From the IMG/VR virus record IMGVR_UViG_2634166512_000003: a stretch of 47,118 bases of DNA. One strand, 5' to 3'. The stretch is from a virus (lineage: Duplodnaviria; Heunggongvirae; Uroviricota; Caudoviricetes). Under the pieces are notes generated by a model that saw nothing but the letters and a program-made list of their open reading frames with translations, made no database searches and had not been told where the DNA came from. Every line of letters starts with the position of its first letter. Position 1 is the first letter of the stretch. The translations under genes and the position numbers were made by a program. Shown here one piece after another: positions 6,838-24,048 of this stretch.

Positions 6838-7251
6838 CTATTTTGTCTGGTTTTTGGCTTCAAGTAGTTCTTTTAGCAGTAGATCGAAGTGCTCTCTTTT
6901 TTCTTTTAGCTCATTGATTAATTTATTTTTTTCGCTCTCAGGCAGTCCTCTGAATAGTTGCAGTAGAGCCTGTTCTTGCGGGGTTAGTTCTTGATTGTAA
7001 TTACCCGGGTGTAGCGTGGATTCATCCAAATATTCCCCTTCATTCATGAAGAAAAAATGAACAGGGTATCCGGTCACTTTTGCTAGCTTGTCTAATTTAT
7101 CTTTTCTTGGAGTTACCCCATTACACCATGCCTGAACTGATTGAGCCGTAACCCCAATATGGCGAGCTAACTCAGATTGAGACCAGCCTAAGTCTTTTAG
7201 AATCCGTTGTAGTCGGCTAGCAAAAGCCATGTTTTTCGTTTTTGTGTTCAT
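6838..7251 (-). CDS. prophage repressor, DicA-like (XRE-family HTH N-terminus, no autopeptidase domain)
   Basis: HTH region LKDLGWSQSELARHIGVTAQSVQAWCNG; C-terminal LLQLFRGLPESEKNKL resembles DicA as recalled; divergent from a Cro-like gene; ORF-track start at 7266 is TTG, first ATG at 7251 preferred. Confidence 0.75.
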   Translation of the reverse strand: MNTKTKNMAFASRLQRILKDLGWSQSELARHIGVTAQSVQAWCNGVTPRKDKLDKLAKVTGYPVHFFFMNEGEYLDESTLHPGNYNQELTPQEQALLQLFRGLPESEKNKLINELKEKREHFDLLLKELLEAKNQTK

Positions 7252-7266
7252 ACCGTAAGGATACAA

Positions 7267-7349
7267 GGTTTAATTGTAGGGAGCATTGCAAATATAATTT
7301 GTAATTACAGTTATGATTTGTAATGATGGCGCGGACACAAGGAGTCCAT
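7267..7349. promoter_or_regulatory. divergent operator/promoter region between repressor and cro-like genes
   Basis: Contains perfect 10-bp palindrome TGTAATTACA, two ATTTGTAAT direct repeats, a TATAAT hexamer and TTGCAA; AAGGAG RBS before cro-like ATG at 7350. Confidence 0.45.
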
Positions 7350-7580
7350 ATGGATAAACAACTGCAAGACAAAATTCTTTCCGTAATGAGTCAATCCGAG
7401 TTAGGGCGGCGATTAGGGAAAAAACCACAAACGGTAAGCCTCTGGTTCAAAGGAAGGGTTCCCGGTGAAGAGGTTTTGCGCACATCTGAAGCTCTTGAAT
7501 GGCGCGTGACCCCCCATGATCTTAGACCGGATCTTTACCCAAACCCAGATGACAGCTTGCCTAAAACGAAAGCAGCTTAA
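7350..7580 (+). CDS. Cro-like / YdaS-family HTH regulator
   Basis: Small protein with HTH (LGKKPQTVSLWFKG) divergent from repressor; start at ATG 7350 with AAGGAG RBS rather than ORF-track 7323. Confidence 0.65.
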   Translation: MDKQLQDKILSVMSQSELGRRLGKKPQTVSLWFKGRVPGEEVLRTSEALEWRVTPHDLRPDLYPNPDDSLPKTKAA

Positions 7581-7638: not shown

Positions 7639-8115
7639 ATGGAAAACCAAGAGGAATTACAAAAAGAGATTTTGACCTGGGCGGCAAGGGCAGGGCAGGA
7701 ACTCGTCACGATTGAAATCTGCCGGGCCTGGTTCAGTCAGGGACGCAATGATGAGTTGAGACTACATGAATTTGAGGACGCGGACGGCAATGTGGACTGG
7801 AGAGCCATCAACAACAATCGGCAGAAAATCTTTCGCTGGTTACGTGGCGAGACAACGGCGGCGCGCCGAAAAACTCAGGTGCTGGCCAGTGTGATGAAAG
7901 CCGTGCTACCCGCAGAACGGCGGGCACGTCTGGAGTCGCTGGGCGATCCCGTTTTGCTGGCAACGCTGGCGGCAAAAGAAGGGGTGGAAGCGATTAACGC
8001 TGTACATCTCCACTTCGCGCCAGAGTTAACTATCCAGGAAATTGACGAAGCAATAGCGGCGCTGGTAGCGACGCGAGGAGCAGTGATACGCACTGCGCAA
8101 GACCACCATGCATGA
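7639..8115 (+). CDS. YdaT-like early regulatory protein (CII-position gene)
   Basis: 158-aa ORF immediately after cro-like gene, as in ydaS-ydaT pairs of Rac-type prophages; assignment by synteny and recalled similarity. Confidence 0.45.
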   Translation: MENQEELQKEILTWAARAGQELVTIEICRAWFSQGRNDELRLHEFEDADGNVDWRAINNNRQKIFRWLRGETTAARRKTQVLASVMKAVLPAERRARLESLGDPVLLATLAAKEGVEAINAVHLHFAPELTIQEIDEAIAALVATRGAVIRTAQDHHA

Positions 8116-9645: not shown

Positions 9646-10071
9646 ATGGAATTACAGGACTGGCGAAAAGAACCTCGTAAAAACTATTCGAATGAATTCA
9701 AACTTCGTATGGTGGAACTGGCATCACAACCTGGAGCTTGTGTTGCACAGATTGCACGTGAAAATGGCGTCAATGATAATGTTATTTTCAAATGGCTCAG
9801 GCTCTGGCAGAACGAAGGGCGTGTTTCGCGGCGTCTTCCGGTAACGACCTCTTCTGACACTGGCGTTGAATTATTACCTGTAGAAATAACGCCGGATGAG
9901 CAGAAAGAACCTGTGGCGGCCATTGCGCCGTCTTTATCCACTTCCACTCAGACCAGAGTCAGTGCCAGTTCCTGCAAGGTGGAATTCCGTCACGGTAACA
10001 TGACGCTGGAAAATCCATCGCCAGAGCTGCTCACAGTGTTGATCCGTGAACTGACCGGGAGGGGAAGATGA
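9646..10071 (+). CDS. IS66 family accessory protein Orf1 (TnpA-like)
   Basis: 141-aa HTH-containing protein, first of the IS66 three-gene set. Confidence 0.8.
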   Translation: MELQDWRKEPRKNYSNEFKLRMVELASQPGACVAQIARENGVNDNVIFKWLRLWQNEGRVSRRLPVTTSSDTGVELLPVEITPDEQKEPVAAIAPSLSTSTQTRVSASSCKVEFRHGNMTLENPSPELLTVLIRELTGRGR

Positions 10072-10418
10072 TCTCACTCCCATCAGGTACCCGTATCTGG
10101 CTCGTTGCCGGCGTTACCGATATGCGTAAATCCTTCAACGGACTGGGAGAACAGGTACAACATGTGCTGAATGATAATCCCTTCTCCGGTCACCTGTTTA
10201 TCTTCCGTGGCCGACGGGGTGACACCGTCAAAATTCTTTGGGCTGATGCTGATGGTCTGTGCCTGTTCACCAAACGCCTGGAGGAAGGCCAGTTTATCTG
10301 GCCTGCGGTACGTGACGGCAAGGTATCCATTACCCGCTCGCAACTGGCAATGCTCCTCGATAAGCTGGACTGGCGTCAGCCAAAAACATCCAGCCGTAAC
10401 TCACTGACAATGTTGTAA
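10068..10418 (+). CDS. IS66 family accessory protein Orf2 (TnpB-like)
   Basis: 116-aa protein overlapping Orf1 stop (ATGA), characteristic IS66 arrangement. Confidence 0.8.
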   Translation: MISLPSGTRIWLVAGVTDMRKSFNGLGEQVQHVLNDNPFSGHLFIFRGRRGDTVKILWADADGLCLFTKRLEEGQFIWPAVRDGKVSITRSQLAMLLDKLDWRQPKTSSRNSLTML

Positions 10419-10448
10419 AAAACTCCTGACCGCATTATAAAAACGGTC

Positions 10449-12062
10449 ATGAGTCAGAAATACCTCATTCGCATCGCAGAGCTGGAAAGGTTGCTCTCTG
10501 AGCAGGCTGAAGCCCTCCGTCAGAAAGACCAGCAACTGAGTCTGGTTGAAGAGACGGAAGCCTTCCTGCGCTCTGCACTGACACGTGCCGAAGAAAAGAT
10601 CGAAGAAGATGAACGGGAAATAGAACATCTGCGGGCTCAGATAGAAAAACTGCGCCGGATGCTGTTCGGTACCCGTTCTGAAAAACTGCGTCGTGAAGTT
10701 GAACTGGCTGAGGCTCTGCTGAAACAACGTGAACAGGACAGCGATCGTTACAGTGGGCGGGAAGACGATCCTCAGGTTCCCCGCCAGTTGCGACAGTCGC
10801 GCCATCGTCGTCCGTTACCGGCACACCTTCCCCGTGAAATACACCGCCTGGAGCCAGAAGAAAGCTGTTGCCCGGAGTGTGGCGGTGAGCTGGATTATCT
10901 GGGGGAAGTCAGCGCTGAACAGCTGGAACTGGTGAGCAGTGCCCTGAAAGTGATCCGCACAGAACGGGTAAAAAAAGCCTGTACAAAATGTGACTGTATT
11001 GTTGAAGCACCGGCGCCGTCCCGCCCGATAGAGCGTGGTATCGCGGGCCCCGGATTACTTGCCCGCGTGTTAACGGGAAAATACTGCGAACATCTGCCAC
11101 TGTATCGTCAGAGTGAAATCTTTGCCCGCCAGGGTGTCGAACTGACCTGGGCCTTACTCTCCAACTGGGTTGACGCGTGCTGCCAGTTAATGACACCGGT
11201 GAATGATGCCCTGTACCGTTATGTAATGAACACCCGCAAGGTTCACACTGATGACACACCGGTAAAGGTACTGGCACCGGGTCAGAAAAAGGCGAAAACA
11301 GGGCGTATCTGGACGTATGTCCGGGATGATCGCAATGTGGGTTCGTCATCTCCTCCAGCGGTCTGGTTCGCGTACTCGCCGAACCGGCAGGGGAAACACC
11401 CGGAGCAACACCTCCGCCCCTTCCGGGGTATCCTGCAGGCGGATGCGTTCACAGGTTACGACAGGTTGTTCAGTGCAGAACGTGAAGGTGGTACACTGAC
11501 AGAAGTTGCGTGCTGGGCCCATGCCCGGCGAAAAATCCACGATGTATACATCAGCAGCAAAAGTGCGACGGCAGAAGAAGCCCTGAAGCGAATCAGTGAA
11601 CTGTACGCCATCGAGGATGAAATACGGGGATTACCGGAGTCAGAGCGTCTTGCCGTCAGGCAGCAGCGAAGCAAAGTGTTACTGACGTCGCTGCATGAAT
11701 GGATGGTGGAGAAGAATGGTACGCTGTCGAAAAAATCCAGACTGGGCGAAGCGTTCAGCTATGTACTGAATCAGTGGGATGCCCTCTGTTATTACAGTGA
11801 TGACGGTCTGGCGGAGGCGGATAATAATGCTGCGGAAAGAGCGCTTCGTGCAGTCTGTCTCGGAAAGAAAAACTTTATGTTCTTTGGCAGCGATCACGGC
11901 GGCGAGCGTGGAGCACTGTTGTACGGGCTGATCGGCACCTGCCGTCTGAACGGTATCGATCCGGAAGCGTATCTGCGCCATATCCTGAGCGTACTGCCGG
12001 AATGGCCTTCCAACCGAGTTGACGAACTCCTGCCATGGAACGTAGTACTCACCAATAAATAA
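10449..12062 (+). CDS. IS66 family transposase
   Basis: 537-aa protein with N-terminal coiled-coil/leucine zipper, CxxC zinc motif and DDE-type core as recalled for IS66 transposases. Confidence 0.85.
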   Translation: MSQKYLIRIAELERLLSEQAEALRQKDQQLSLVEETEAFLRSALTRAEEKIEEDEREIEHLRAQIEKLRRMLFGTRSEKLRREVELAEALLKQREQDSDRYSGREDDPQVPRQLRQSRHRRPLPAHLPREIHRLEPEESCCPECGGELDYLGEVSAEQLELVSSALKVIRTERVKKACTKCDCIVEAPAPSRPIERGIAGPGLLARVLTGKYCEHLPLYRQSEIFARQGVELTWALLSNWVDACCQLMTPVNDALYRYVMNTRKVHTDDTPVKVLAPGQKKAKTGRIWTYVRDDRNVGSSSPPAVWFAYSPNRQGKHPEQHLRPFRGILQADAFTGYDRLFSAEREGGTLTEVACWAHARRKIHDVYISSKSATAEEALKRISELYAIEDEIRGLPESERLAVRQQRSKVLLTSLHEWMVEKNGTLSKKSRLGEAFSYVLNQWDALCYYSDDGLAEADNNAAERALRAVCLGKKNFMFFGSDHGGERGALLYGLIGTCRLNGIDPEAYLRHILSVLPEWPSNRVDELLPWNVVLTNK

Positions 12063-14949: not shown

Positions 14950-15744
14950 ATGACAACTCAAGTATCCGCAGCAGCCATCTCCCCGATTATCCACAACCAA
15001 CTTCCCGTCCTCACCACCGAATTACTCGCGAATCTCTATGGCACAGAGCCGGATTACATTCGTAAAAACCATAACCGGAACTCAGAGCGATTCGTGGTCG
15101 GGAAGCATTACTTTTTGCTCGAAGGTGAGGAGTTGCGCGAATTTAAGCACAGCATGTCTTTAAGACCTCCTGTGAAAATCGCCAGAAATGTCCGCTCTCT
15201 CATCCTCTGGACAGAACGCGGCGCAGCTCGCCATGCCAAAATGCTGGAAACAGAACAGGCCTGGGAAGTTTTCGAAAAGCTGGAAGATTGTTATTTTAGC
15301 CAGCGTCCAGAGAGGCGGAGTACAACCACCGATGACCGCACTCCCTTACGTGATGCCGTTAATATGCTGGTCGGTAAGAAAGGCATGATGTATCCCGATG
15401 CCTACACCATGATTCACCAACGTTTCGCCGTCTCTCACATAGAACAACTGTCACAGACGCAAATGTTAGAGGCGATTGAATACATCCACTGCCTGCTACT
15501 CGATGAAAATCAGCCAACCATTCCAGATTTTTCTTTTATCACCACTATCAAAAATGGAAAAGTGACCAGGATGCGCCATGTTGCCAAAGGCGAACATCTG
15601 ATGACGTTTGACGCTTTCAAAGAGATCGCTGAGCGGGCAGGGTATCTGGTGATCCACAGCGACAACCTGCGAAGTATGACGCTGGATAAATTGATGGTAA
15701 TGGGGAAAAAGTCGGTTGTATCCGTTGCTGATTCAGCATTTTGA
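14950..15744 (+). CDS. antirepressor / Roi-like protein with N-terminal KilA-N/ORF6N-type domain
   Basis: N-terminal region (LPVLTTELLANLYGTEPDYIRKNHNRNSERFVVGKHYFL) resembles ORF6N/KilA-N antirepressor domains as recalled. Confidence 0.55.
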   Translation: MTTQVSAAAISPIIHNQLPVLTTELLANLYGTEPDYIRKNHNRNSERFVVGKHYFLLEGEELREFKHSMSLRPPVKIARNVRSLILWTERGAARHAKMLETEQAWEVFEKLEDCYFSQRPERRSTTTDDRTPLRDAVNMLVGKKGMMYPDAYTMIHQRFAVSHIEQLSQTQMLEAIEYIHCLLLDENQPTIPDFSFITTIKNGKVTRMRHVAKGEHLMTFDAFKEIAERAGYLVIHSDNLRSMTLDKLMVMGKKSVVSVADSAF

Positions 15745-19373: not shown

Positions 19374-19979
19374 TTACTTGCGTTTAAAAAGGTATTTTGT
19401 CACGACCAGCACGAGGCCGAATACCTCTGTCAAAGTACCGCCCATGTACAACTGTAGTGTTAAATCCTCAAATTCCAGCTTACCTGCGCCGTCGGCAATA
19501 AATACACCATTCATTATCAGAAGTTGGCAAGCAAGGATAATCAGGAACCATTTCCCGTATCGTTTTTTTAGAGCGATTTCTGCTTCAAAATCTTTGTTGT
19601 TGAGTTGTTTGCGCTCATGCTCGGTATCAAGTGAATTCACCTGTTTCACAGATGTGAACTCGGTCAAGATTTTACTCTCAGTACGGGTGACTTGTTGAGA
19701 GGGTGTAACAGTTGGAATTCTTTTGCTAGACGCAGCTACAGCCATTTTGCGAGCTTCGGCAGCTCTTTTTCTGGCTATTCCGCGAATACGGACAGCCGTT
19801 TTTTTGGGGGCGTGCGAAACCTTTGGCTGAGGTGAAGTTTCGTCAGGAGACTGAACCGGGGTTTCATCGTCCCCCGGCTCAACCTCTTCTGCTAACTGAC
19901 GGTGTAGGTTGAGGGAATCCTTCAGTCGGCGTGCAACTTCCTGTTTGAAACGGCTGTTAAAATCGTCATCCGATGGCAT
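19374..19979 (-). CDS. Lys/Arg-rich protein with two C-terminal transmembrane helices
   Basis: Hydrophobic segments WFLIILACQLLIMNGVFIA and LTEVFGLVLVVTKYLF near the C-terminus; start 10 nt after ImmA-like stop; 3' end coincides with repeat copy B. Confidence 0.55.
   Translation of the reverse strand: MPSDDDFNSRFKQEVARRLKDSLNLHRQLAEEVEPGDDETPVQSPDETSPQPKVSHAPKKTAVRIRGIARKRAAEARKMAVAASSKRIPTVTPSQQVTRTESKILTEFTSVKQVNSLDTEHERKQLNNKDFEAEIALKKRYGKWFLIILACQLLIMNGVFIADGAGKLEFEDLTLQLYMGGTLTEVFGLVLVVTKYLFKRK
19384..19454. repeat. copy B of about 70-bp direct repeat (coding 3' end of the 19374..19979 gene)
   Basis: Near-identical to 15783..15852. Confidence 0.8.
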
Positions 19980-19988
19980 TCTAAAGCG

Positions 19989-20477
19989 TTACCCCAACCT
20001 CAAGTTCTTTAAACGATAAGTCATCGCATCGTCAGATACGCCAAAATAATGCGCCATTATATAACTTGGTTGGCCGTCAGCGTGCAGTTTTCTGACCTCA
20101 TCAACCGGCATCAGAAGTTCTGCTGCGAACTTGTTCGCAAAAATTTCATCAGGATGCGTTCCGGCGCTTGCGGTTTCGCCACGTAAATCAACGTACTCAT
20201 ATTCATCACTATGCGATGCTTGCCGGGCGATGTAATGCCCCAACTCATGCCCACATGAAAAACGTTGACGAACTTTGTTGTCATCACTGTTTAGAAAGAT
20301 CGCTGGATCTTGATCTTTTTGTTTAATCAGTGCGCCAGAAACTTTCCCAGGAAGATCGGTAATAAAAACATCTAATCCCATGTCGTGAGCAATTTTCGCT
20401 GGATCAACAGGGAAACCACGCCCGCACCAGAACGTGTCCAGCACTCGCCGGGCGTGCTCTCTTGGGTTGGTAGCCAT
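19989..20477 (-). CDS. ImmA/IrrE-family metallopeptidase
   Basis: HELGHY zinc-binding HEXXH motif in a 162-aa protein; GGAG RBS upstream. Confidence 0.7.
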   Translation of the reverse strand: MATNPREHARRVLDTFWCGRGFPVDPAKIAHDMGLDVFITDLPGKVSGALIKQKDQDPAIFLNSDDNKVRQRFSCGHELGHYIARQASHSDEYEYVDLRGETASAGTHPDEIFANKFAAELLMPVDEVRKLHADGQPSYIMAHYFGVSDDAMTYRLKNLRLG

Positions 20478-21044
20478 AGCTCCTCCAGTTACTGCATTAC
20501 GATTGTTGGTCGAAATATAGACAACATGTTCCGTACCACTTTCCTGTGAAAGTGCAAATTCTGCACTTCTGGTACGATATTAACTGTTAGTAGTAAAGTC
20601 TTCCAGATAAATCACTTTAAAATCTTGTGAATTGCTTGCTTTTTACGCTGCATTGTGGATGGCTCAATGTTTCCAGTAAAAACATACATGATAATCATGA
20701 CATTAGTGGTTTTTTAAGCGTCCATATGTTTCTTAAAAAAATGGATGCCACAAGAGGCCAGATGAGAACGGAAAGGGAAGGCTATTACATGTGTGATTTA
20801 TTACATCTGTAAAAAAATACAGATCTAACTTGATCTTTTCATTGAAGTTTTTCTTGGTCCTGGATAGGATCTGGAGGTTGCGAAGTTTTTAGAGTCGCAT
20901 CAAAGGGAAAGCCCTGACAGCGCCAACTGTCAGGGCCATACAAAAACATCGGTTAATGCTTTCGTTGAGATCTCGGTTTGGGAGATTACCTCAACCGGGA
21001 TCCCGTGTAAAGCATTCATTACCGAAAATGATATAGGTCAATGA

Positions 21045-21323
21045 ATGAAACACATCTGTAAAAAGTCACATCGTCACGACAGTATGTTTGATGTTCTTTC
21101 TGCAAATCAGGGTAACGTTGGGCGGCACAAGTGTTGTGGATGTGCCTATGATAAAGGTATGTGGCATGCATTAATCGGCGTTCCGCGTGCGGTTGATGAC
21201 TCTGTTTTAGGTGATTTACCCGAAAGCCAGGCTGGGCATGTCCGTCATAAAGATGCTTTTGAAGCATATAATATGGGCTATGACCATGGGATGCATAAAA
21301 AAGCCTACGGTATGGCCTCATAA
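21045..21323 (+). CDS. hypothetical Cys/His-rich small protein
   Basis: ORF followed by a strong intrinsic terminator; true start may be internal. Confidence 0.35.
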   Translation: MKHICKKSHRHDSMFDVLSANQGNVGRHKCCGCAYDKGMWHALIGVPRAVDDSVLGDLPESQAGHVRHKDAFEAYNMGYDHGMHKKAYGMAS

Positions 21324-21345
21324 TCTGGTGCAAATGAATAACTAA

Positions 21346-21370
21346 CCCGCTTCGGCGGGTTTTCTTTTTT
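21346..21370 (+). terminator. rho-independent terminator
   Basis: CCCGC-TTCG-GCGGG hairpin followed by TTTTCTTTTTT. Confidence 0.6.
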
Positions 21371-21441
21371 ATAGAACCCTGCGATGTGAAAACGAATAAT
21401 AAATTTTGCAAATAATGCAGTTTTTATTATTCGAGGTAATT

Positions 21442-22083
21442 ATGAAAACCTTCTATGAGGACTGGCCTGAAACTTTCGTTAGCCGATTAGATATGTTACG
21501 AGCTCTGGATGATCGCGGCTCGACCCGGAGGCTCTATCTTGAGCGGACCGGGGCAATATTTGACGCTCTGGCAGAAGAGATACGTACAGCCGTTGCCGGG
21601 CATCCTGAAATCGACGTGAGTGAACTTGATATCGGGCCGCTGTATCGCTATTACAAACGTGGAGAAAAGGGGAATCCGCTGGCTGACTTACTTATTGAGT
21701 TGGCTCCACCAACTTGTGAACGGGTTCGTATATCTCCTGAAGTGTACACAATCCCGTATCTGTTTTTTGCACTGTTGATAGCGCAAGGCGCTGACAACGA
21801 TGCCCGCGATTTTTTCAATATGATGATGCGACCGTTGATCATCGCCTACCGTTTCAAACAACTGGCGCGCTACCTTGGCACGAAGGGCGGAGGACGACCA
21901 CAGCACAGATTAAAAAGCGAAGCCATTGAACTGGCTGATCGTTTTTTTACTGAAAACCCGACAGCGCCATTATCGCGTGGTGTGCAATACATATCCGGTA
22001 TTTTTGTGGCGAAATACTCTGACCCACCTGCAGCGTCGACGATTAGAAAATGGTTAATTTCAATTTACAGGAGTGATAAATAA
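21442..22083 (+). CDS. hypothetical phage protein
   Basis: ATG at 21442 with GAGG RBS preferred over ORF-track start at 21406, which lies inside an upstream inverted repeat. Confidence 0.45.
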   Translation: MKTFYEDWPETFVSRLDMLRALDDRGSTRRLYLERTGAIFDALAEEIRTAVAGHPEIDVSELDIGPLYRYYKRGEKGNPLADLLIELAPPTCERVRISPEVYTIPYLFFALLIAQGADNDARDFFNMMMRPLIIAYRFKQLARYLGTKGGGRPQHRLKSEAIELADRFFTENPTAPLSRGVQYISGIFVAKYSDPPAASTIRKWLISIYRSDK

Positions 22084-22196
22084 TGACCATAAACGGTTTA
22101 ATCCCCTATAAAACCGTTTAATAAAATTCACGACGTGAATATAATTGTTCATTATTCCCTCATTGTATTTGGCGTTATGACAAATGCCATAAAATA

Positions 22197-22212
22197 CTGT
22201 ATAAATGTACAG
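22197..22212. promoter_or_regulatory. LexA box (SOS operator) overlapping a promoter -10 element
   Basis: CTGTATAAATGTACAG fits CTGT-N8-ACAG with AT-rich centre; TATAAA inside the box and ATGACA 17 bp upstream resemble -10/-35. Confidence 0.6.
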
Positions 22213-22234
22213 GTAATGGCGTTAGGGGGAAGAC

Positions 22235-22414
22235 ATGAATATTCAAGAATCTATAGGCGAACTACCGGAAACATGCCGGGCTGTTATCAAGCGTAAGGAC
22301 GGACACATCGTTGGTGTGCGTGTTCTGACCGATGATGAACGGATTGCCAGCCTGATGGCGTTTCTCGAGTTGGCAGAAATAGCTGGATATACTATTACAC
22401 CCCCTGATGCGTAA
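22235..22414 (+). CDS. small SOS-regulated protein (59 aa), candidate antirepressor
   Basis: ATG 22 nt downstream of the LexA box with AGGGGGA RBS; below the 60-aa ORF-track threshold; function inferred from context only. Confidence 0.45.
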   Translation: MNIQESIGELPETCRAVIKRKDGHIVGVRVLTDDERIASLMAFLELAEIAGYTITPPDA

Positions 22415-22490
22415 AACACGGTATAATGTCGGTGCTGGATTGAACACCCAGCACCACTTCTGAACACTGCCGCGCCACCTGGAGTTAACC

Positions 22491-23087
22491 ATGGCGCAGC
22501 ATTCATTTATCAGGGTATCCGGCGGTTCGCTAATACCCGCGACACCAGACACGCAACGCTGGTTGACTGAACGAGTCAAACCAGGTGCTGTTGTGTATGC
22601 AGATTTCAAACAGGCGCGTAATCCCGCGTTTCATCGTAAATTTTTCTCACTTCTCAACCTGGGCTTTGATTACTGGCATCCCTCCGGAGGGGCTATTTCT
22701 CCTGCGGAGCGCGAACTGGTTCACGGATACGTTAAGTTACTGGCGTATTACGGTGGGCATGGTGATGTCATGGCTGAGCTGGCTGATCAGTATCTTCTCG
22801 ATGAGTCGGAAAAGCGCGCGGGGAATATCAGTGCGGTGAAGTCGTTCGAGGCGTTTCGCGCCTGGGCGACTATGGAATCTGGATTTTATGACGTTCATCA
22901 GATGCCAGATGGTAGTTTGATGCGTGTACCTCGTTCAATCTCGTTTGCTGCGATGGACGATCTTGAGTTCGGTCAACTGTATTCAGCCGTTTTAGATGTG
23001 CTGTGGAATTATATTTTGTTCCGCACGTTTGCCTCTCAGGAGGCCGCTGAAAATGCTGCCGCGCAGCTGTTGGATTACACATCATGA
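22491..23087 (+). CDS. nin-region phage protein (DUF1367-like)
   Basis: 198-aa ORF directly upstream of YbcO-like gene with ATGA overlap; family assignment tentative. Confidence 0.45.
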   Translation: MAQHSFIRVSGGSLIPATPDTQRWLTERVKPGAVVYADFKQARNPAFHRKFFSLLNLGFDYWHPSGGAISPAERELVHGYVKLLAYYGGHGDVMAELADQYLLDESEKRAGNISAVKSFEAFRAWATMESGFYDVHQMPDGSLMRVPRSISFAAMDDLEFGQLYSAVLDVLWNYILFRTFASQEAAENAAAQLLDYTS

Positions 23088-23377
23088 AAAAAATCGACCT
23101 GAGAAAAGCTGCACGTGGTCGCGCTTGTACTGTGCGTATCCCCGGTGTGTGCAATCACAATCCTGAAACCAGCGTACTGGCTCATTATCGTCTCGCCGGA
23201 ACGTGCGGCACAGCCATCAAACCTCACGATATGCAGGGCGCTATCGCCTGCAGTGCGTGTCACGATGCCATCGACGGACGTACAAAAACGGATTACGAGC
23301 ACGACTCATTGTTGTTGATGCACGCTGAGGGAGTTTTCAGAACACTGGCTATCTGGCGCGATGAGGAGTTTATCTGA
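23084..23377 (+). CDS. ybcO: YbcO-like DUF1364 protein (putative nuclease)
   Basis: LRKAARGRACTVRIPGVCNHNPETSVLAHYRLAG...AIACSACHD closely resembles recalled E. coli YbcO. Confidence 0.7.
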   Translation: MKKIDLRKAARGRACTVRIPGVCNHNPETSVLAHYRLAGTCGTAIKPHDMQGAIACSACHDAIDGRTKTDYEHDSLLLMHAEGVFRTLAIWRDEEFI

Positions 23378-24048
23378 TGAGTAACGAGTATTTATTGGAA
23401 TATACCCGCATAAAACTGCGCGCTGCATTACGGGATTTGTCTGGTGGTTCTAAGGGGCAACTGGAAGCATTGTGTGAGCACCCGCCAGCAGATAAAAACG
23501 CATACCCACGCAAACATATTCATCGTGTGCAACTGGAGGACCGGACCGTTGATGCTCTGGTTACGCCAGTTTATGCCCTGGAAAGTTTCAGCAGACGTCG
23601 TCCCGCGCCGCCGATGAATGATTATGAATTCGCTGATTCATCGTGGCGCCGCGCCGTGAATTCGCTCGACGTTAGCCAGCAGGCGTGGTTGCGCTATTGC
23701 TACGGTGGTCACCTGGCGTTCAAACACCAAACAGCTATTTGTGAGGCTGTCTGGAGTCGCTATAAAGGACACATCCCCGCGTCAACTCAGAGAAAAGTAG
23801 CTAAGCGTCTGCTTTCGTTGGTGTGGTTGTCCGTGCAGGCGGTTGCAGCAGCAAATAAACGCGAGGATTTTAAGGAGATGGCTGGATCTGCGCTAGCTGG
23901 AATGTTGTCTGTTTCTCGTTCCACCTGGTGCGAAACATACTCCCCGCACTGGGTAGGAATGAAAGAGGCGGTGAGAGCACTTGATGAAATGGCACTTCTT
24001 GCAACTTTGCATCATTATCAAAACCATTTAGACGACGTTTGCGTATAA
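23377..24048 (+). CDS. late-gene antiterminator Q-like protein
   Basis: 223-aa Cys-containing protein located between nin-type genes and the lysis cassette, followed by a terminator-like hairpin; assignment mainly by synteny. Confidence 0.5.
   Translation: MSNEYLLEYTRIKLRAALRDLSGGSKGQLEALCEHPPADKNAYPRKHIHRVQLEDRTVDALVTPVYALESFSRRRPAPPMNDYEFADSSWRRAVNSLDVSQQAWLRYCYGGHLAFKHQTAICEAVWSRYKGHIPASTQRKVAKRLLSLVWLSVQAVAAANKREDFKEMAGSALAGMLSVSRSTWCETYSPHWVGMKEAVRALDEMALLATLHHYQNHLDDVCV

Follow-up and report, generated by a model that had tools for sequence, protein, structure and literature searches.

A LexA box preceding a 59-residue protein of the Rem/GfoA/FsoA family as the probable SOS trigger of a Gifsy-type switch in an Escherichia coli prophage

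The closest described relatives of the locus treated here come from the Gifsy prophages, in which a LexA-regulated operon that includes irsA supplies the antirepressor that induces the prophage (PMC3121763). GfoA and GftA are LexA-controlled proteins that bind their repressors, GfoA and GfhA cross-react with heteroimmune repressors, FsoA acts only on a foreign repressor, and Gifsy induction is unchanged when irsA or dinI is removed by non-polar deletion (PMC3121763). Two further LexA-controlled antirepressors are Tum of coliphage 186 and AntC of N15 (cited in PMC3121763). Rem of Qin, to which transitive PSI-BLAST starting with GfoA and FsoA had led, relieves the repression of dicBp by DicA 165-fold (Ragunathan et al. 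2023, PMC10448788). Here we describe a locus of this kind in the IMG/VR record IMGVR_UViG_2634166512_000003, a stretch of 47,118 nucleotides of tailed-phage DNA (the window), where a strong LexA box covers part of the predicted promoter of a gene for a 59-aa protein. A preliminary description of the window, made from the letters alone, had proposed this open reading frame (ORF) as a candidate SOS-triggered antirepressor. That reading is supported by homology (phrog_340, BLASTP and hhalign), by the slot that the gene shares with its Gifsy counterpart and by LexA sites at 16 of 16 related loci, and we consider it quite likely that a Gifsy-type prophage switch is triggered by the SOS response through this locus.

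The sequence CTGTATAAATGTACAG at 22197–22212 forms the 16-nt core CTGT-N8-ACAG, so that the SOS box claimed in the preliminary description was found with the sequence and coordinates given there. As had been suggested in the same place, LexA sites were sought with a position weight matrix (PWM), in this case an approximate matrix of 20 nt trained on 25 SOS boxes of E. coli. With 22.3 bits the extended box TACTGTATAAATGTACAGGT outranks every other site of the window and is 7.5 bits ahead of the runner-up (14.7 bits); the training boxes themselves have a median of 19.8 bits and a range of 12.9–26.2. None of 500 random 47-kb sequences generated from a first-order Markov model attained this value (mean maximum 11.3, highest 20.7). 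The box agrees with TACTGTATATATATACAGTA at 16 of 20 positions. The bare CTGT-N8-ACAG pattern occurs twice in the window against 0.52 expected, an excess that is not significant (at least two copies in 10 of 100 shuffles). The second literal copy, CTGTAAAAAAATACAG, is placed at 20807–20822, with the ImmA/IrrE gene on one side and an ORF of 92 aa on the other; it reaches 13.1 bits, a value attained by 19% of the random 47-kb sequences, and was dropped as a second SOS operator.

The predicted sigma-70 promoter, which matches the consensus at five of six positions in both the -35 (ATGACA) and the -10 (TATAAA) hexamers, probably functions as such, and its -10 together with the expected start site falls inside the LexA box, in line with the overlap that had been claimed. 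This promoter was missed by a consensus promoter scanner because the scanner requires T at position 6 of the -10. In the allelic variants present in E. coli the -35 and the CTGT and ACAG arms are invariant and the -10 is nearly so, while divergence is seen in the bases beside the arms and over the first 100 nt of the ORF. The ATG is located 22 nt past the box core and is preceded by a good Shine-Dalgarno sequence, again as described earlier (coordinates are collected in Table 1). The fold of the 5' leader is no stabler than that of shuffled versions, so this region appears unstructured. A scan of positions 20300–23200 against Rfam gave nothing relevant.

Some features upstream of the promoter deserve a mention of their own. 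A promoter-like site (TTAATA-16-TATAAT, 22118–22145) is found 50 nt upstream of the LexA promoter and overlaps the palindrome ATTCACGACGTGAAT (22126–22140), which is kept among the E. coli variants with changes only at its central bases; it is possible that this palindrome is the operator of some regulator. Farther upstream, a terminator of the Gifsy/Qin type (ACCCGCTTCGGCGGGTT) is located at 21344–21361. A gene for a protein of 213–225 aa (phrog_5215, 'All2787-like'), with a weak hairpin of its own at 22090–22120, separates this terminator from the LexA promoter and looks like a moron inserted between the two.

Control by LexA was compared at 16 loci of 8 kb each, fetched from seven genera (Escherichia, Salmonella, Enterobacter, Kosakonia, Serratia, Citrobacter/Klebsiella and Pluralibacter), which carry homologues 34–76% identical to the 59-aa protein. 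At every one of them the top PWM site of the whole locus is found in the intergenic region directly before the small gene. Of these sites, fifteen score 20.7–28.0 bits and the remaining one 14.6, with second-best sites that do not exceed 13.8 bits at any locus. The box ends 17–20 nt before the start codon in 13 of the 16 loci; in two Serratia loci a strong box is placed 148–170 nt upstream of the Rem-like gene, implying that the interval is a long leader or holds a small ORF that has escaped annotation. Most of these promoters are of a TTGCAC...TATATA type, unrelated in sequence to the promoter in the window, and the recurrence of the LexA site therefore reflects selection and not shared ancestry of the flank. 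The gene order on the downstream side is also constant, with a DUF1367 gene 64–78 nt past the small gene in every locus examined, although Q is not the next gene in many of them.

The small ORF had been called unlisted, and it was missing from the first ORF track; RefSeq, on the other hand, annotates it as the hypothetical protein WP_001025459.1, and it is a real, conserved gene. Its product matches phrog_340 (E 1.6e-20), the same PHROG that takes FsoA (E 1e-26), Rem (4e-21) and a GfoA-like protein (6e-21). This family is labelled 'unknown function' in PHROGs v4, despite the characterised antirepressors Rem and FsoA and the GfoA-like members that it contains. By BLASTP the closest proven relative in terms of identity is FsoA (41% over 39 aa, E 2e-7). 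The GfoA-like proteins SEN34_55 and mEp237 gp49 align at 33% identity over 51 aa (E 3e-9) and have in common with the 59-aa protein the C-terminal motif GY-x-(I/V)-TPP-x-D. The relationship with K-12 Rem is seen in the hhalign comparison of the family profile with about residues 34–81 of that protein (94.6%, E 7e-8; 88.6% with a smaller profile).

An exhaustive search with phmmer and profiles recovered about 90 cluster representatives, almost all of them 59–67 aa in length and from Enterobacterales, with the common motif LPxxGRVxI...NG...R...DDEH(I/V)ASL..(F/L).ELA..AGY. A tblastn search against phages, by comparison, returned only three records at E<=1e-3, which made remote searching by profile necessary. 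Alignments with GfoA-like proteins, FsoA and Rem, including one made with MAFFT, define the 59-aa protein as a small single-domain member (this class spans about 60–85 aa) that carries the family core LPxxGRxxI...G...R...DDEH(I/V)..L..(F/L).E(L/M)A..AG(Y/F). No match was obtained in NCBIfam or in a Pfam library that did not include PF27490 ('Rem'); many relatives have faint or weak precomputed matches to PF27490. The AlphaFold2 model calculated from the family alignment is of high confidence (predicted local distance difference test score 89.8) and consists of a helix (residues 3–8), a β-hairpin (15–31) and a second helix (40–49). Neither the sequence, when compared with the PDB, nor the modelled fold, when compared with solved structures, gave a match.

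The reference proteins were traced through the primers published with the Gifsy work. FsoA was identified as STM0898.2n of Fels-1 from primers le154 and le162 (Table S1, PMC3121763), which encode MNSQQMM... and ...EAGIRFEEISNVG, respectively. The C-terminus of GfoA, ...RRLGYRVTPPSDI, was read from primer le163 (Table S1, PMC3121763, Lemire et al.). A blastn search with le163 against phages located near-identical genes in SEN34 and mEp237, in both cases between dinI and a DUF1367 gene; exact-match scans of viral contigs with the GfoA primers found none. Membership of the 59-aa protein in the GftA family was considered and dropped, as no BLASTP alignment was obtained and hhalign gave 7% and 19%; GftA is assigned to PHROG 4847, and its match to phrog_340 has an E value of only 0.23. 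An antirepressor of the large Ant type (P22 Ant; ORF6N, Bro-N, KilAC or AntA) was likewise rejected, the 59-aa protein having no such match in Pfam or PHROGs, and no similarity to DinI was detected in the searches of these two databases.

The comparison with the Gifsy prophages extends to the organization of the locus. In Gifsy-2 the order is terminator, LexA box, dinI, gftA (STM1020.1n), STM1020 (DUF1367, the irsA homologue), nin genes and Q; in the window it is LexA box, 59-aa gene, DUF1367, YbcO and Q. In comparison with Gifsy-2, SEN34 and mEp237, the 59-aa gene is situated outside the immunity region, past the replication genes and directly before the DUF1367 gene, whose product is 56% identical to that of STM1020. 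GfoA resembles the window protein in sequence family, in the position of its gene under a LexA box and just upstream of DUF1367/irsA, and in having as partner, presumed in the case of the window, a non-cleavable helix-turn-helix (HTH) protein of the DicA/GtgR type. The window protein is shorter (59 aa versus about 77–82) and does not have some 20 of the N-terminal residues. GftA shares the genomic position, the LexA logic and the type of repressor, and differs in its PHROG and in having no significant sequence similarity to the window protein. No dinI is found between box and gene, the 22-nt gap containing no ORF and no match to DinI being present. This layout is also seen in the 63-aa subfamily, and dinI is typical of Gifsy phages without being required for function, its deletion having had no effect. 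Further differences with respect to the Gifsy phages are the E. coli host, a phage with a myovirus tail and an antirepressor function that is predicted from sequence. The precedent to which the preliminary description had appealed, namely LexA-repressed antirepressors that induce prophages with non-cleavable repressors, corresponds to this Gifsy paradigm (PMC3121763).

The spacer between the 59-aa gene and the DUF1367 gene (76 nt) contains a GC-rich hairpin that is kept in the E. coli variants, and a similar CTGG..TGAACA..CCAG element precedes STM1020 in Gifsy-2. Since this hairpin has no T-tract and is not a canonical terminator, read-through into DUF1367, and perhaps into YbcO and Q, is likely, in the manner of irsA in the Gifsy phages. 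The DUF1367 gene is thus probably co-transcribed with the 59-aa gene from the SOS promoter, and YbcO and Q possibly with it.

Rem of Qin belongs to the same PHROG, and the parallel includes its target, as Rem antagonises DicA and the window repressor is 32% identical to DicA. The genes are also placed alike, past the ACCCGCTTCGGCGGGTT terminator and before the nin/Q region. Rem is longer (83 aa), and the signal that induces rem is unknown, whereas the window gene has an intact, strong LexA box. The region upstream of rem in K-12 contains no CTGT-N8-ACAG; only AAAATACTTAAGTAGCGCGCAGG is found where the window has AAAATACTGTATAAATGTACAGG. This suggests that AAAATACTTAAGTAGCGCGCAGG is a LexA box that has decayed in a cryptic prophage, and such decay could account for the lack of a known signal for Rem. 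FsoA of Fels-1 is a member of the same PHROG as well, and its regulation is different, since it is part of a PL operon under a CI-like Fels-1 repressor, not under LexA, and it targets the foreign repressor GtgR; in this respect it is closer to a 73-aa paralogue encoded elsewhere in the window (see below) than to the LexA-controlled 59-aa gene. Tum and AntC agree with the window gene in that a LexA-repressed gene gives a product that inactivates a non-cleavable repressor. They are set apart, by description only, as larger and different proteins, Tum having 146 aa with a DinI-like half.

The presumed target is the immunity repressor of the same prophage. Its Pfam matches are to HTH domains only (HTH_3), none being to the S24 peptidase, in agreement with the earlier claim that this repressor has no peptidase domain. 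It is assigned to the DicA/RacR/GtgR family of repressors without autocleavage. Over the full length it is 33% identical to GtgR of Gifsy-2 (E 6e-23) and, as mentioned, 32% to DicA (E 1e-17); its match to the DicA subfamily of NCBIfam (E 3e-20) is below the cutoff. A C-terminal helix with the sequence LLxLFxxLPExE is invariant in the alignment of the three repressors. Operator-like repeats occupy the divergent intergenic region that separates it from the cro-like gene and are its putative operators. Shuffled combinations of antirepressor and repressor alleles were observed at loci from E24377A, YZMc3-1 and HCP5S3_I2, the last of which has no ORF6N gene.

The site and its strength, its conservation, the homology of both the small protein and the repressor and the gene order underlie the following model, in which LexA binding, SOS induction and contact with this particular repressor are predicted. 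In the lysogen, LexA bound to its box would cover the -10 and the start site and keep the 59-aa gene silent. Upon DNA damage, activated RecA would promote the self-cleavage of LexA and the promoter would fire, so that the 59-aa protein could accumulate and bind the DicA/GtgR-type repressor, which has no autocleavage domain of its own. Released from the DNA, the repressor would vacate the operators that separate its gene from the cro-like gene, and derepression of the early lytic operons would follow. DUF1367, and possibly ybcO and Q, would be transcribed along with the 59-aa gene.

Two more Rem-like modules are encoded in the window. A free-standing gene for a protein of 73 aa (phrog_340, E 3.6e-21; hhalign 96.3% to the family profile) is placed in the early-right region, just upstream of an ORF6N gene; it is unannotated in the prophage of strain RM10042 and hypothetical in E24377A, and no high-scoring PWM site was found near it. 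The neighbouring ORF6N protein, which is Ant-like, contains the other module in its C-terminal part (residues 188–239; hhalign 96.7%; phrog_340, E 3e-12, on residues 199–240), 34% identical to the 59-aa protein by BLASTP (E 9e-6), and is thus the N-terminal domain of a large Ant fused to a small-antirepressor core. Both the 73-aa gene and this fusion resemble FsoA, being under phage control rather than LexA control. Tentatively, and with considerable doubt, the three modules could be arranged in a three-tier Rem system, with the LexA-controlled 59-aa protein as trigger and the 73-aa protein and the C-terminal ORF6N module expressed only after derepression, their role being either to lock the switch or to act in trans as inducers of heteroimmune DicA-type prophages. 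That 59-aa alleles combine freely with repressors only 33% identical would, in such an arrangement, point to docking on the invariant C-terminal LLxLFxxLPExE helix and not on the DNA-binding domain. If this were true, Rem-like proteins would be near-universal inducers of DicA-type repressors and the signal for Rem of Qin would be a lost LexA box.

Elsewhere in the window, an ImmA/IrrE metalloprotease gene (19989–20477, minus strand) encodes a protein that matches CapP, the DNA-damage-responsive protease involved in the regulation of the cyclic oligonucleotide-based antiphage signalling system (CBASS), with an E value of 2e-25. It is followed by the gene of a 201-aa protein (phrog_5346), both within 19374–20477 on the minus strand, and no HTH partner adjoins them.

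The assignment of the resident repressor as the target has to be weighed against a different use of the same elements. FsoA is a precedent for a family member that is active only on a foreign repressor (PMC3121763), and antirepressor and repressor alleles do not co-vary; both would fit a LexA promoter and a Rem-like protein that are real and whose main target is the DicA-type repressors of other prophages. The prophage would in that case owe its own induction to the 73-aa paralogue, to the ORF6N-Rem fusion or to the CapP-like metalloprotease, and the presence of three Rem-like modules and of the CapP match agrees with this. We nevertheless hold such crosstalk to be unlikely as the main role, given that the LexA box is found solely on the 59-aa gene among the Rem-like genes and that in the Gifsy phages the cognate inducer is encoded in exactly this position. 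The two remaining Rem-like genes, located in the early-right region and with no LexA site, would be expressed only after derepression, and the CapP-like gene is part of a minus-strand accessory cluster without an adjoining HTH partner. It is even less probable that the SOS promoter chiefly serves DUF1367, YbcO and Q, in recombination or repair or in a direct SOS activation of late genes, with the 59-aa ORF as an accessory leader gene that has no role in the switch. The constant distance between the small gene and DUF1367, the hairpin without a T-tract and the inclusion of irsA in the LexA-regulated operon of the Gifsy phages (PMC3121763) all speak for such an arrangement. It is countered by the homology that links the small protein with three antirepressors of experimentally demonstrated activity, by the fact that non-polar deletions of irsA and dinI leave Gifsy induction unaffected (PMC3121763), and by the many related loci in which Q is not next and the small gene is always present. 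The near-chance frequency of the bare CTGT-N8-ACAG pattern in the window would suit a fortuitous palindrome in AT-rich intergenic DNA followed by 59 codons that are no gene. This last possibility is effectively refuted by a PWM score unreached in 500 random sequences and by the recurrence of the site at all 16 loci across genera, together with the conserved length and motif of the cluster representatives and the confident fold prediction.

Several points weigh against the resident switch as we propose it. Support for this locus is computational throughout, the PWM is approximate, and no similarity between the 59-aa protein and GftA itself could be detected. The two extra Rem-like modules, the ORF6N Ant-like protein and the CapP-like protease could each contribute to induction. 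As to the pairing of alleles, E24377A-type prophages (12 genomes) combine the identical 59-aa allele with a repressor of only 33% identity, and the window repressor (99–100% identical, 437 genomes) occurs with three 59-aa alleles that are only 75–76% identical, the differences (about 25%) being concentrated mainly in the N-terminal 35 residues. Strict pairing thus found no support in the test of co-variation, which spoke mildly against it; the co-occurrence of alleles weighs little either way because most carriers represent one near-clonal prophage lineage. Such loose pairing fits the broad specificity of GfoA and GfhA, and equally a target other than the resident repressor. Finally, the insertion of an IS66-family element in the replication region may make full induction of the window copy doubtful.

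With regard to the host, the 2.1 kb surrounding the LexA-box locus are 100% identical to chromosomal prophages in several E. coli strains, RM10042 among them, and 97% identical to phage vB_EcoM-705R4; similar sequence is present in 470 of 5426 complete E. coli genomes (about 8–9%). No paper on this E. coli locus was found in the literature. The annotation of RM10042 shows a lambdoid-type early region with the integrase beside tRNA-Ser/mtfA, followed by the HTH repressor, the cro-like and YdaT/CII-like genes, the replication genes, an accessory cluster, DUF1367, DUF1364/YbcO, Q and the lysis genes, and past these by lambda-like head genes and a contractile tail. The IS66-family element is missing from this otherwise identical prophage, and strain RM9387 likewise has a copy free of it. 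Because the element sits in the replication region, the copy in the window is probably replication-defective, even with an intact switch.

Table 1. Position of the predicted switch elements and accompanying genes in the window
Feature	Position	Strand	Evidence or remark
Presumed target: DicA/GtgR-type immunity repressor gene	6838–7266	-	RefSeq start gives 130 aa (6838–7230); longest ORF 142 aa
Putative operator repeats: two 19-nt copies, 22-nt overlapping palindrome	7284–7325	.	Between repressor and cro-like genes
YdaS/Cro-like gene	7350–7580		Pfam/PHROG
YdaT/CII-like gene	7639–8115		Pfam/PHROG
IS66-family element (HTH_Tnp_1 ORF, TnpB_IS66, DDE_Tnp_IS66)	9646–12062	+	Between replication-initiator ORF and DnaB helicase gene
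Second free-standing Rem-like gene, 73 aa	14456–14677	+	phrog_340; hhalign
Third Rem-like module, in the ORF6N Ant-like protein (gene 14950–15744)	15511–15666	+	hhalign
Predicted sigma-70 promoter	22177–22205	+	-35 ATGACA 22177–22182, 17-nt spacer, -10 TATAAA 22200–22205
LexA (SOS) box TACTGTATAAATGTACAGGT	22195–22214	.	PWM 22.3 bits; covers -10 and likely transcription start
Shine-Dalgarno sequence AGGGGGAAG (also read as (A)GGGGGAAG)	22224–22232	+	2–10 nt before ATG
Small antirepressor gene of the Rem/GfoA/FsoA family, 59 aa (function predicted)	22235–22414	+	phrog_340, BLASTP, hhalign
Conserved GC-rich hairpin GGTGCTGG / CCAGCACC, 8 bp, no T-tract	22431–22455	+	Fold; in the 76-nt spacer before the DUF1367 gene
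DUF1367 gene (irsA/STM1020 homologue)	22491–23087	+	Pfam DUF1367, E 1e-78
YbcO/DUF1364 gene	23084–23377	+	Pfam YbcO
Antiterminator Q gene	23377–24048	+	Pfam Phage_antiter_Q

The mechanism proposed here is not new, the Gifsy paradigm having been established in 2011 (PMC3121763). The details in which this locus differs from the known cases are the minimal 59-aa core, the lack of dinI and the company of two more Rem-like modules, which brings their number in the prophage to three. The value of the finding resides mainly in annotation and consolidation, as it gives the probable SOS wiring of a common E. coli prophage lineage and proposes a function and an induction route for a gene annotated as a hypothetical protein. 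It also joins PHROG 340, Rem of K-12 and GfoA and FsoA of Salmonella into what would be one SOS-wired family of antirepressors for DicA-type repressors. Under the proposed switch, DNA-damaging antibiotics would be expected to induce this prophage lineage without cleavage of its repressor, and co-resident DicA-type prophages may be cross-induced.

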